Virus record (IMG/VR): IMGVR_UViG_3300015615_000196
Coordinates: 128,001 to 192,000 of that record
Reading direction: 5' to 3' (one strand)
DNA: 64,000 nucleotides
Source of the DNA: a virus
Lineage: Duplodnaviria > Caudoviricetes
Positions within the stretch are counted from its first letter, which is position 1, and each line of letters opens with the position of its first letter. Under the pieces are notes generated by a model, which saw only the letters and a program-made list of their open reading frames with translations, made no database searches and was not told the origin of the DNA. Positions 59,182-64,000 of this stretch are shown piece by piece. A program made the position numbers and the translations under genes.

Positions 59182-61509
59182 ATGAGTAGCACCGTTTTCG
59201 TCATAAAAAGAAATGGCACAAGAGAAGAACTCAATTTTGACAAGATAAACAACGTTTTAATGTGGGCATGTGAAGGCATCAAGAATGTAAGTGCCTCCGA
59301 CATTGCGATGAACGCAAAACTTCAAATGGTAGATGGTGTAAAGACCATCGACATTCACAACATCCTGATTCAATCCGCATGTGATTTGATTTCAGAGGAC
59401 ACTCCGAACTATCAGTATGTTGCATCAAACCTTCTGAACTACTTGTTGAGAAAACAAGTGTTTGAAGCGAAAGACGCTCTCCCCTCTCTCTACGATGTAA
59501 TCAAGAAAAATGTAGAATGGGAAATTTACGATTCCCTTCTGCTTGAAAAATATTCAAAGGAAGAAATCAATCAAATCGACAAGTGGATAAAGCACAGTCG
59601 TGATTTCAACCTTACCTACGCTGGTATTCAGCAATTGGTGGACAAGTACCTGTTGAAAGATCGTTTCACTGGTAAGTTGTATGAGACCCCTCAATTCATG
59701 TATATGCTTATCGCCATGACTATTTTCATGGACTATAAGACCGATAGATTGAAGTGGGTGAAGAAGTTCTACGATCATATTTCTCTCTTTAAATTAAGCC
59801 TTCCTACGCCCATTATGGCAGGTGTACGCACACCAAATCGCCAGTGGTCTTCATGTACCCTGATTGATGTTGGTGATGATCTTGACTCTATATTTACGTC
59901 AAACAGTGCCATTGGGTATTACAGTGCGAAACGAGCAGGTATTGGGTTAAATTTTGGCCGTATTCGCGCTCTCGGAGATAAAATTCGTGGTGGGGAGGTT
60001 GTACACACGGGCGTAATCCCGTATTTGAAGATGTTTGAATCAACCGTGAAGTCCGTTACACAAAACGGAATTCGCGGGGGTTCAGCAACTGCGTACTTCC
60101 CTTGGTGGCATAAAGAAACGATGGACATTCTTGTGTTGAAGAACAACAAGGGTACGGATGATAACCGTGTTCGTAAATTAGACTACGCAATTCAGTTCAA
60201 TCGTTTATTCTATCAACGTGTAATTGAAGATGGTACAGTAACCCTCTTCTCACCCAATGACATTCCCAATCTTTATGAATCATTCTTTGAATCAAATGAA
60301 AAGTTCGAAGAGATTTACTTGAAGTACGAGAACAACAAGAATTTCAAGACCAAGAAAGTAAAGGCAAGAGAACTCTTCAATTCATTTTTACAGGAACGCA
60401 TTTCAACAGGTAGAATCTACTTGATGAATGTAGACCATGCAAACTCACACAGTTCATTCATCGACAAAATATACACATCGAATTTGTGCACGGAAGTAAC
60501 ACTCCCAACGACTCCGATGAAGCACATTGATGACGATGATTCAACTGCTGCTGAAATTGCTCTCTGTGTTCTTGCTGCTGTAAACTTGGGTGAGATCAAA
60601 GACATTGCAGAAATTGAAGAGATCATGGAGTCTGCTGTTCGTGCACTTGACTTTGTGATTGAACACCAAGACTATCCGGTGAAAGCAGCACTCAAGATGC
60701 TCAAGAGAAGATCATTGGGTATCGGTATCACCAACCTTGCATACTATCTTGCAAAGAATGATGTTGGATACGAAGACAAAGGTGCATTGAAGTTGGTAGA
60801 TCAAACAATGGAAGCTATTCAATTCTTTGGCATCAAAGCCAGTGTAAAACTTGCGAAAGAATTTGGCAAGTGTGAATGGTTCGACAAAACGAAATACTCA
60901 TTGGGTATTCTCCCAATTGACACATACAAAAAGGAAGTTGATGGTTTGACTAATCGTAAACACACATACGATTGGGAAGAACTTCGTGCAGAAGTTCAAG
61001 AGCATGGGATGCGTAATTCATGCATCACTGCTGAAATGCCATGTGAGTCATCTTCATTGGTAACAAATTCAACGAATGGTATGGAACCAGTTCGTGCATT
61101 GATCACCAGTAAGAAGTCAAAGCAGGGAATCATCAAAGTTGTAGTTCCAGATTTCAACAAACTCAAAAACAAATACACACTCGCCTTCGATATGAAGGAC
61201 AACAAGAGCATCACCAACATTCAGGCGGTAATGCAGAAGTGGATCGATCAGGCAATTTCTTCAAACCACTACTACGATTTCACGAAGTCGGATGATGGAG
61301 AAATTTCGTTGTCGGAGTTGGGTATGGACATTCTTTACGCCTACAAAATGGGTGCGAAGACCCTGTACTACGCAAATTCGAATGATGGGAAGTCAGATGA
61401 CCATGAAAAACAGCTAAAACGACTTGACATTAACGAACCAAAAGACGTATCTTTGGCTGTGGCTCAGACCGATGAAGCAGGATGCGAGTCGGGTGCATGT
61501 AGCGTGTAA
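59182..61509 (+). CDS. nrdA: Ribonucleotide reductase class Ia alpha subunit (with ATP cone)
   Basis: VIKRNG ATP cone, LPTPIMAG, SSC, SNLCTE, KTLYY, CESGAC. Confidence 0.97.
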   Translation: MSSTVFVIKRNGTREELNFDKINNVLMWACEGIKNVSASDIAMNAKLQMVDGVKTIDIHNILIQSACDLISEDTPNYQYVASNLLNYLLRKQVFEAKDALPSLYDVIKKNVEWEIYDSLLLEKYSKEEINQIDKWIKHSRDFNLTYAGIQQLVDKYLLKDRFTGKLYETPQFMYMLIAMTIFMDYKTDRLKWVKKFYDHISLFKLSLPTPIMAGVRTPNRQWSSCTLIDVGDDLDSIFTSNSAIGYYSAKRAGIGLNFGRIRALGDKIRGGEVVHTGVIPYLKMFESTVKSVTQNGIRGGSATAYFPWWHKETMDILVLKNNKGTDDNRVRKLDYAIQFNRLFYQRVIEDGTVTLFSPNDIPNLYESFFESNEKFEEIYLKYENNKNFKTKKVKARELFNSFLQERISTGRIYLMNVDHANSHSSFIDKIYTSNLCTEVTLPTTPMKHIDDDDSTAAEIALCVLAAVNLGEIKDIAEIEEIMESAVRALDFVIEHQDYPVKAALKMLKRRSLGIGITNLAYYLAKNDVGYEDKGALKLVDQTMEAIQFFGIKASVKLAKEFGKCEWFDKTKYSLGILPIDTYKKEVDGLTNRKHTYDWEELRAEVQEHGMRNSCITAEMPCESSSLVTNSTNGMEPVRALITSKKSKQGIIKVVVPDFNKLKNKYTLAFDMKDNKSITNIQAVMQKWIDQAISSNHYYDFTKSDDGEISLSELGMDILYAYKMGAKTLYYANSNDGKSDDHEKQLKRLDINEPKDVSLAVAQTDEAGCESGACSV

Positions 61510-61523
61510 CTAAAACTCAGGAA

Positions 61524-62609
61524 ATGAGCGAAAAATCAATTATCAACGTAAAGCAAGTTGACTTTACGAAGGAACCTATTTTCTTTGGAGAAAAATTGAA
61601 TCTCCAACGGTATGATCGTTTCAAATACGAGAATATCTTCGGCATGTTCAAAAAACAAATGGGATTCTTTTGGAGACCAGAAGAAATTGCATTGGGCGGG
61701 AAGGAACGTGGCGACTACAATTCGTTGACTGATCACCAGAAGTTCATCTTCACAAAAAATTTGGGCTACCAGATTTTATTGGACAGTGTTCAGAGCCGGG
61801 GTATCTCGAATCTGTTGGAAAATTGTTCAAATCCAGAAGTTGAGGCATTCGCCAAGATATGGGAATTCTATGAAACCCTGCACTCCTACTCCTACACATA
61901 TATTATAAAGAATGTGTACTCAAATCCGAGTGAGGTGTTTGATCAAATTCTGGTAGATGAAGAAATTATCAAGCGCACAACGTCCGTGACCAAGTACTAC
62001 GATGCGTTGATCAATTCCATTTCAAATGGGAACGCCACCGAATACAGCCAGAAGAAAGCATTGTACCTGACTTTGATGTCGATCAATATTCTTGAGGGCA
62101 TTCGATTCTATGTAAGTTTCGCTTGCTCGTTCTCATTTGCAGAAAACAAGAAAATGGAAGGTAATGCCAAAATTATTAGTTTCATCGCCCGTGACGAAAA
62201 CTTGCATTTGGGCTTTACTCAGTTCTTGATCAAATTACTCCGTACCGATCCATCGGAAGGCTTCACTCAAGTAGCGAAAGACTGTGAAAAAATCGTCTAC
62301 GGTATGTTTGAGGATGCTGCAAAAGAAGAGATCGAATGGGCAGAATATCTTTTCAAAGATGGCTCATTATTAGGACTTAACGCTGAAATCTTAACGCAAT
62401 ACATGAAGTGGTTGACCAACCAAAGAATGAAGGCAATAGGATTGAAGCCAATGTTCGACCAAGCAAACAATCCGATCAACTGGATGCGCAATTGGATTGA
62501 TTCTAAAGCAGTTCAGAATGCACCACAAGAAACGGAGATCGAATCGTATGTTGTTGGTTCAGTGAAAAACGACTTGGATAGTGCCGATTTCTCGGACTTC
62601 AAACTTTAA
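61524..62609 (+). CDS. nrdB: Ribonucleotide reductase class Ia beta subunit
   Basis: FFWRPEE, LDSVQ, ETLHSYSY, LEGIRFY, RDENLH, APQETE. Confidence 0.97.
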   Translation: MSEKSIINVKQVDFTKEPIFFGEKLNLQRYDRFKYENIFGMFKKQMGFFWRPEEIALGGKERGDYNSLTDHQKFIFTKNLGYQILLDSVQSRGISNLLENCSNPEVEAFAKIWEFYETLHSYSYTYIIKNVYSNPSEVFDQILVDEEIIKRTTSVTKYYDALINSISNGNATEYSQKKALYLTLMSINILEGIRFYVSFACSFSFAENKKMEGNAKIISFIARDENLHLGFTQFLIKLLRTDPSEGFTQVAKDCEKIVYGMFEDAAKEEIEWAEYLFKDGSLLGLNAEILTQYMKWLTNQRMKAIGLKPMFDQANNPINWMRNWIDSKAVQNAPQETEIESYVVGSVKNDLDSADFSDFKL

Positions 62610-62633: not shown

Positions 62634-62732
62634 AACCTTTTATAGAAAACTTCGTATTTATCTTTACCCTCAAAAAAAAGTTGAAAAATTTTTGATGGGG
62701 GCTTGACAAAGAGAAAAGTATTAGTACCTTTG
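62634..62732 (+). promoter_or_regulatory. Stacked promoters: ECF-like AACC-N15-CGTAT, late GTATTTAT, host TTG-N19-TACCTTTG
   Basis: AACC 62634-62637 with CGTAT 62653-62657; GTATTTAT 62654-62661; TTG 62703-62705 with TACCTTTG 62725-62732. Confidence 0.7.
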
Positions 62733-62739
62733 TCCTCCC

Positions 62740-63595
62740 GTCCCGATCAAAAGGGACAAACAAAACGTTCTTTAAAATCTTAAAAATATGGGCTGCTTGA
62801 AGTCCATAAGATAAATCCAGCAATGGATATAAAGGGGGTGTGGTAGTAACGCCATACTTTCGATCCCTGACCGCAAGGAAAGGGATACAGTCAAGCAAGC
62901 ACACCGTTTGGTGTTTCTTTGGATCAGTCGCAAGGCTGGTTCTCCTGTGTTGGAGGTAAACTCCATCATGGGTCTGAAAGGGCAACTGCCAGTAGGGAGA
63001 GACATTAAGCCTGACTACGGAAGTCAGGATAAATCCAGAAATGGAAGATCAGGAATGTGTAGATCAATCGGTCTGAACTCCGCAAGAGCGTAGGGCTGGT
63101 GTCATTTAGTGTTGGTCAGATGGTCAGAGTAAAATCCCCGTCCCGGTGCTAAACGTAAGCCGCAAGCCACAGAAGGTTGTTTGGTATTGGCTACTCAAAA
63201 GGTAGTTAGCCGAAGTCTCAGCCACATCCTTCAAAGTCCGTACACAATCACACATGGTCTTAGAAACCATTTGCCATTTAAGCAAACTTGTAACAAAAGA
63301 ACAAGTGCTGAGACGTTAGAGCAGAAAGTCGCATACCACTGATGCAACATACAGTGGTGGTTGATCCTCAAGATTGGCCATATGATACGACTTGTTGTTG
63401 GAAGGCATCTTCCTTAGCTTGCTATGAAAGGAGTAGGGCAGTGATGGGCGTAATTGAAAATGCTTTAACGAGAACGATTGGTCTCCGAAAGAGACTTGCG
63501 ATTGTAGCAGACGTTCCGCAAGGGGCGTGGATACGAAGCGAACCGAAAGGATAATGCTTCTAAGGTGCTACTGTTATGCTGTAATCTCAAGCATA
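62740..63595 (+). ncRNA. Large structured ncRNA, GOLLD-like
   Basis: ~800-850 nt without a credible ORF; many GCAA/GAAA-capped hairpins; long-range GTCTCAGC/GCTGAGAC pair; 3' hairpin ATGCT-GTAATCTCA-AGCAT; adjacent tRNA-like genes. Confidence 0.7.
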
Positions 63596-63734: not shown

Positions 63735-63806
63735 GGATTTGTAGCTTAATTATTAGAGCGGTTCCCGTTGAGGGAATAGATAGGGGTGTGAATCCCTTCG
63801 AGTCCA
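63735..63806 (+). tRNA. Degenerate tRNA-like element (nominal anticodon UUG, Gln)
   Basis: Acceptor GGATTTG/CGAGTCC, D GCTT/GAGC, anticodon GTTCC/GGAAT with loop CGTTGAG, T AGGGG/CCCTT with loop TGTGAAT (non-canonical). Confidence 0.65.
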
Positions 63807-63811
63807 CACAA

Positions 63812-63881
63812 GATTTTGTCGTCCAAACTACAGGACACCACCCTACAGGTGGAAATTTGGGAGTGTACCCCTTCAAAGTCT
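63812..63881 (+). tRNA. Highly degenerate tRNA-like element
   Basis: Acceptor GATTTTG/CAAAGTC, D GTCC/GGAC, anticodon CCACC/GGTGG with a 5-nt loop CTACA, weak T arm. Confidence 0.45.
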
Positions 63882-64000
63882 CACAACTGGCTATTAACTG
63901 AGTTACTTCAACTTTGTTCTATAAACAAAACAACCACTTGGTTTGCTTTCCAGTTTCGTTCTTTAAAGTATGTTTTGGTCAAGCCTCTTCCCCTTGTGGG

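Follow-up and report, generated by a model that had tools for sequence, protein, structure and literature searches.

The locus analyzed here raises the question of what is encoded by the 856 nt (62740-63595) that follow nrdAB in a 64,000-nt stretch of phage DNA (the window; positions 128,001 to 192,000 of IMG/VR record IMGVR_UViG_3300015615_000196). A sequence-only reading of the window had proposed an ornate noncoding RNA of ~800 nt in a large phage of Bacteroidota, either a member of the GOLLD family or a new relative of it. Its size and setting held up: nrdA and nrdB stand immediately upstream (Table 1), and the RNA has a core of ~807 nt (62788-63594), or ~855 nt when counted from the predicted transcription start. 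The phage is indeed large, the record being a complete genome of 362,603 bp with direct terminal repeats, in which the RNA occupies 190.7-191.6 kb. GOLLD RNAs rank with the largest structured RNAs of bacteria and phages, and their cages have no known function.

The identity of the RNA was determined with covariance models, the check that had been proposed along with the original reading. Rfam model RF02032 (GOLLD) matched 63172-63593 on the + strand over its full length (model positions 1-416) and scored 159.8 bits (gathering score 150; E = 6e-43), and an Rfam scan of the whole 362,603-bp genome located this one copy. Only half of the 856 nt was matched because the Rfam model, like the alignment published with the cryo-EM structure, represents the conserved 3' domain alone. 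No match to ROOL was obtained in a gathering-score scan of the whole window or at E ≤ 1 across 62000-69000, and other Rfam families were ruled out as the identity of 62740-63595, with no match beside GOLLD. A blastn search of 50,697 phage records with the RNA as query found nothing. Of the two affiliations first offered, membership in GOLLD stands, on the score of 159.8 bits and on a homologous 5' domain (described below), and the new relative does not: the RNA is a new member in a divergent, low-scoring subgroup of the family (here only ~10 bits over the cut-off), and the definition of the family is unchanged. The reading adopted here, very probably the correct one, is that 62788-63594 constitutes a genuine full-length GOLLD RNA gene, noncoding and with a fold belonging to a single strand; the putative operon and cage discussed below are part of the same explanation.

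The folding of the GOLLD stretch greatly exceeded chance and was strand-specific (MFE z-scores: + strand, -10.1; - strand, -1.0), and six GNRA-capped hairpins were counted on the + strand against 0.75 expected from shuffles, with none on the opposite strand. The hairpins singled out in the sequence-only reading were all recovered (Table 1), including the terminal hairpin with its loop GTAATCTCA. A protein-coding reading of the stretch was rejected, there being no conserved ORF among relatives and 11-16 of the 15-19 indels in each relative not being multiples of three; the longest overlapping ORFs had no Pfam match. The absence of a credible ORF, as first described, was thereby confirmed.

In the 3' domain, the perfect long-range pair reported earlier (8/8 Watson-Crick) is the linker-closing pseudoknot of GOLLD, formed between the P14 internal loop and the nucleotides that immediately precede P17. 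It carries one compensatory exchange, G-C to C-G, within the subgroup (L045), and the helix was present with differing sequences in 9/9 diverse GOLLDs read from Rfam alignments. Its counterpart in a published supplementary table is the set of covarying pairs 467-471:555-559; the pseudoknot is already in published covariation data and is not new. The second long-range pairing likewise corresponds to published covarying pairs 576-580:743-747. The signature loops of GOLLD are retained, namely the L14 A-run UCAAAAG, the GC of L21a (GGCAUC in P21a) and L27 GUAAUCUCA. In many other phage GOLLDs, tRNA-model matches were observed within the J13/15 linker (Table 1).

The 5' half was analyzed with two further covariance models. 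Model R1 comprised 62765-62916 (152 nt) with four hairpins, the pairing of the H1 loop being deliberately omitted, and matched 40 of 98 sources. All 39 matches accompanied by a recognizable 3' motif were on the same strand as that motif and preceded the GOLLD 3' end by 748-954 nt, the distance in the window being 828 nt. In the R1 alignment 93% of cells were paired, slid controls giving 35-45%, and the observed values were reached by 0/500 shuffles. For the 5' pseudoknot, absent from the model, 89% of cells were paired and changes on both sides were seen in 4/6 pairs: the H1 loop GCUUGA (62795-62800) covaries with UCAAGC (62891-62896) in at least 10 loop/partner combinations, variants among GOLLDs including GUUUAG/CUAAAC, GCAUGG/CCAUGC and GCUUCG/CGAAGC. 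The earlier suggestion that TGCTTGA (62794-62800) could pair with either 62891-62897 or the 3' end (63587-63593) was correct in that complementarity to both sites is 7/7; covariation upholds the first, and pairing with the 3' end is refuted because GOLLDs with a different H1 loop pair at only 2-3/6 positions there, as against 6/6 at the 62891 site. Model R2 (62999-63106) was significant only inside the subgroup; its marginal matches in the canonical GOLLDs L020 and L038 fell just after the R1 matches and in the same hairpin order. That the R1 and R2 matches are in register argues that the whole 5' domain belongs to the GOLLD family. Judged from these alignments, 62788-63171 is the variable 5' domain of the family, with lineage-specific inserts at 62917-62965, and the RNA shows the GOLLD trait of a 5' domain ~400 nt long that is structured, is less conserved and precedes the 3' domain. 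The R1 covariation tests the 5'-terminal module and the 5' pseudoknot independently, and could help to extend the GOLLD model to full length, since both the Rfam model and the published alignment omit that region.

Table 1. Positions of the GOLLD RNA, its structural elements and neighboring features (window coordinates unless a locus is named).
Feature	Position	Strand	Detail
nrdA	59182-61509		upstream of GOLLD
nrdB	61524-62609		upstream of GOLLD
Putative Bacteroidota-type housekeeping promoter	62703-62732	+	TTG 62703-62705, N19, TAccTTTG 62725-62732
Predicted transcribed leader	62740-62786	+	hairpin, boxA-like motif, A-rich spacer
Leader hairpin	62740-62757	+	GTCCC-N8-GGGAC
boxA-like motif (putative role)	62767-62776	+	GTTCTTTAAA
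Conserved 5'-terminal module of 5' domain	62788-62916	+	covariance model R1, covariation
H1	62788-62807	+	loop GCUUGA
H2	62816-62827	+	GCAA loop; AUAAAG after it
H3	62834-62861	+	5' module
H4	62863-62886	+	GCAA loop
5' pseudoknot	loop 62795-62800 with 62891-62896	+	covariation
Variable/central part of 5' domain	62917-63171	+	RNAalifold compensatory changes, 7 subgroup sequences
Window-specific inserted hairpins	within 62917-62965	+	including 62922-62941 (8-bp stem, GCAA loop)
Hairpins of central 5' domain	63010-63028 and 63070-63098	+	
GAAA-capped hairpin	63034-63045	+	candidate L11a
GCAA element	63161-63166	+	central 5' domain
Conserved GOLLD 3' domain P14-P27	63172-63593	+	RF02032 match
P14	63172-63232	+	L14 loop UCAAAAG at 63195-63201
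Linker-closing pseudoknot, probably P15	63215-63222 with 63307-63314	+	8 bp
Variable linker J13/15	63233-63306	+	enclosed by linker-closing pseudoknot, no tRNA
P17	63314-63323/63461-63470	+	
Second long-range pairing	63328-63332 with 63498-63502	+	GUCGC with GCGAU, 5/5 pairs
P21b	63412-63437	+	loop AUGAAAGG
Hairpin	63481-63495	+	5 bp, CGAAA loop
Hairpin	63511-63528	+	7 bp, GCAA loop
P27 (terminal hairpin)	63576-63594	+	L27 GUAAUCUCA at 63581-63589
tRNA-like unit	63735-63807	+	Rfam tRNA 46.8 bits, ARAGORN; Gln, anticodon UUG, G replaces U33
tRNA-model matches in J13/15 linkers of other phage GOLLDs	L078 655-717; L010 1425-1496; L065 2322-2394; L076 5442-5513; L085 10957-11028; L060 2532-2601; L063 2679-2732		

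Relatives were collected by a pattern search of IMG/VR for the 3' motif, which returned 96 GOLLD stretches, several lying on 250-600-kb contigs. Four of these (L009, L042, L045 and L051) match the window GOLLD in both halves, and later searches added L105, L149 and the partial copy L119; the subgroup thus holds six relatives with both halves, all above the cut-off, and a partial seventh (L119). RNAalifold applied to the 7-sequence subgroup alignment predicted 185 pairs, 52 of them with compensatory change, many in the 5' half. The 18-mer GGGCTGCTTGAAGTCCAT was discarded as a probe for the subgroup, as most of its 41 metagenome matches and half of its 10 viral-contig matches were due to chance.

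Cryo-EM has shown that GOLLD RNAs form RNA-only cages, the env-38 RNA a 14-mer (PDB 9MEE) and that of S. agalactiae a 12-mer (PDB 9L0R), its 3' domain by itself giving a 10-mer, with 3' domains as rings, 5' domains as caps and the linker facing inward (Kretsch et al.; reviewed in PMC12990946). By homology with these two RNAs, the window GOLLD would likewise build an RNA-only cage, of roughly 12-14 copies, from rings of 3' domains capped by 5' domains, with the 84-nt linker turned inward. The subunit count is tuned by peripheral helices, P21b among them (PMC12990946). The kissing loop L21b is bridge B9 of the 14-mer; here P21b is present with a changed loop sequence (AUGAAAGG versus the CGCAAG type in 8/9 other GOLLDs read), and the hairpin is missing from the relative L042. 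An equatorial kissing contact known from the 14-mer may accordingly be missing here, and the altered P21b makes the number of subunits unpredictable. The outer P21 helix has four non-canonical pairs in the Rfam alignment, and neither here nor in the relatives read did the J13/15 linker contain a convincing partner for the L20 loop CUCAAG (the bridge B7 contact).

These departures bear on the alternative that survives best, namely that the RNA is a divergent descendant of GOLLD which has kept the single-chain fold and lost the closed cage, existing as a monomer, a half-shell or in some other stoichiometry, and may act otherwise, for example by providing a platform to which a phage or host factor binds. 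Such a descendant would fit the borderline score, the low scores of the whole subgroup (156-174 bits, against 198-312 bits for other phage GOLLDs), the mispaired outer P21 and the altered or missing P21b, loss of helices of this kind being known to change stoichiometry (PMC12990946). It is nevertheless considered unlikely: the contacts that can be checked (the L14 A-run, the L21a GC, L27 and both pseudoknots) are kept, the 5' cap module is conserved, and the S. agalactiae GOLLD closes as a 12-mer with no P21b at all, so P21b is dispensable for the cage (PMC12990946).

For the full-length, cage-forming GOLLD favored here, transcription is predicted to start at ~62739-62742, downstream of a putative promoter of the Bacteroidota housekeeping type that is conserved in L042, L051 and the GOLLD-less L003. 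Sites of the form TTG-N17-21-TAnnTTTG number 75 genome-wide, against 45.6 +/- 3.5 expected, and the N19 form precedes both GOLLD and three tRNA islands. The boxA-like motif in the leader has the core TTCTTT, which occurs at the 5' edge of 20/40 aligned GOLLD 5' ends, and the full motif has 18 copies in the genome against 7.2 +/- 3.1 expected, some of which lie in coding sequence. The boxA-like GTTCTTT(A/G)AA also occurs between small-RNA units downstream (63958-63967), and copies of the motif were seen inside two tRNA islands (genome 98172 and 82379, - strand). No further TAnnTTTG promoter was found between GOLLD and p725, a downstream protein gene, and a single strong terminator was found on the + strand, after p725 at window coordinates 66463-66491 (L002 9463-9491), past the end of the window.

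An operon is proposed because the same promoter heads the downstream RNAs in L003, there is no internal promoter and one strong terminator, and promoters of the same type stand upstream of tRNA islands. In principle, the host RNA polymerase would transcribe GOLLD from the TTG-N19-TAnnTTTG promoter and pass through the leader, whose hairpin and boxA-like element may act in antitermination. GOLLD would be the first cistron, and the transcript would run on through tRNA-like units, three small RNAs and p725 to the terminator. RNase P or RNase Z could then cut at the tRNA-like units and release GOLLD; the first unit, as its sequence and placement suggest, is probably the processing site that frees the GOLLD 3' end.

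The position of the tRNA-like unit after GOLLD is conserved in L042, L051 and L149. Odd anticodon loops were noted in the tRNA-like units of several phages (window 63735-63886, L042 4959-5030, L003 5622-5691 and L045 ~2100-2200). As read from the alignment, the anticodon is UUG in the window and L051 and UCG in L042, and L003 and L045 have UUA, which would decode the stop codon UAA; a second unit in the window has a 5-nt anticodon loop. Three tandem small-RNA units of 67-82 nt extend from 63885 past the window end (L002 6885-7170), sharing the pattern GGCTAT...GTTACTTC...AACTAC...TTTCCAG, and are conserved in five phages, the GOLLD-less L003 among them. They had no Rfam match even at E ≤ 1, and are probably an undescribed small-RNA family. 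The product of p725 (725 aa; 64210-66387, L002 7210-9387) is a member of phrog_33734 with more than 1,600 relatives, all unannotated and many on 300-550-kb contigs; it had no Pfam match even at E ≤ 10, and its language-model look-alikes are auto-named TerD. Beyond the window, p847 and p1212 (L002 10588-16771) share long similar segments, as they do in relatives, which fits duplication.

The place of GOLLD in this operon was assessed by comparison with phages that lack one or the other component. L003, a complete 371.5-kb sister phage, has no GOLLD anywhere in its genome and retains nrdAB, an identical promoter sequence, the tRNA-like unit, the three small-RNA units and p725. Among six further p725 loci, GOLLD was found only in the closest, L149 (73% identity), and the other five (L150-L154) are without it; in L009, GOLLD is present and p725 absent. 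From these comparisons GOLLD appears as a removable first cistron, confined to one sub-clade and free of any obligate tie to p725, and an obligate GOLLD-p725 partnership was rejected on the evidence of the same loci. We infer from gene content that GOLLD, as first cistron, is optional in a conserved stable-RNA operon and accessory for this phage lineage. What is new here is local: GOLLD as the optional head of an operon, within one sub-clade. That GOLLD acts mainly in cis, as a long structured leader controlling the transcription, processing or stability of the downstream RNAs and p725 with no free RNA particle, is very improbable, for while it does lie after the operon promoter and ahead of the other RNAs, lacking a promoter or terminator of its own, the operon is conserved without it in L003 and L150-L154, L009 carries it without p725, and the GOLLDs of other phages stand in unrelated contexts.

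Under the favored account of a released, cage-forming GOLLD, a further and quite unlikely step would be that an older stable-RNA operon acquired GOLLD as its first cistron and that the GOLLD cage works with the co-transcribed products, for example by enclosing or organizing them. If this were so, a GOLLD cage would for the first time have defined candidates for its cargo or partners, namely the tRNA-like RNAs, the 70-80-nt RNAs and p725. A natural comparison is provided by complete, closely related jumbo phages that share the operon with and without GOLLD, and the window GOLLD offers a defined host-type promoter and leader.

Of the 61 tRNA genes of the phage, the majority are clustered in islands at 54-103 kb. 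The description of the RNA as lying near tRNA genes is right for one or two odd tRNA-like units downstream and wrong for the other 57 tRNAs, which are at least ~88 kb away (~88-137 kb upstream of GOLLD or at least 105 kb downstream); with the first unit 141 nt downstream, the GOLLD trait of a phage location next to tRNA genes is seen here. At other GOLLD phage loci, tmRNA genes were observed within large tRNA arrays (L085 5067-5412, L046 3050-3394 and L035 5489-5882), and one such locus has a group I intron in its tRNA array (L085 12532-12733).

The assignment to Bacteroidota gains indirect support from the promoter type, from the failure to find Shine-Dalgarno enrichment (motif in 6% of ORFs versus 9% background) and from the taxa of the p725 look-alikes, which are mostly from Bacteroidota or phages; on these sequence features a Bacteroidota host is likely. 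NrdA is ~53% identical to cyanophage and pelagiphage NrdA, an identity too distant to be informative on the host. Outside the window, a tRNA with anticodon CUA, which would read TAG, was noted at genome 299220-299292, and TAG terminates only 16/250 long ORFs; TAG may be suppressed or recoded in part of the phage.

Compared with known systems, the window RNA resembles the env-38 and S. agalactiae GOLLDs in its full 3'-domain match, both long-range pairings and the L14 and L27 loops, and known GOLLDs generally in its variable J13/15 linker, homologous 5' cap domain, length of ~0.8 kb, phage location and adjacent tRNA-like gene. It differs from them in its low score, altered P21b loop and extra hairpins at 62917-62965, and from many phage GOLLDs in having a linker (84 nt) without an embedded tRNA. 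It heads an operon of small RNAs and a protein gene at least ~88 kb from the main tRNA islands. Like ROOL, which forms octameric or hexameric cages, it is a large, ornate, GNRA-rich phage RNA near tRNAs and probably cage-forming; unlike ROOL, it has two separate domains in the GOLLD arrangement and does not match the ROOL model. Its upstream region recalls the leaders of bacterial rRNA operons (promoter, boxB hairpin, boxA) in combining a host-type promoter, a hairpin and the U-rich GTTCTTTAAA. The putative boxA motif differs from that of rRNA leaders in also occurring in coding regions, and it shares with them its recurrence in arrays of stable RNAs, in this case those of the phage.
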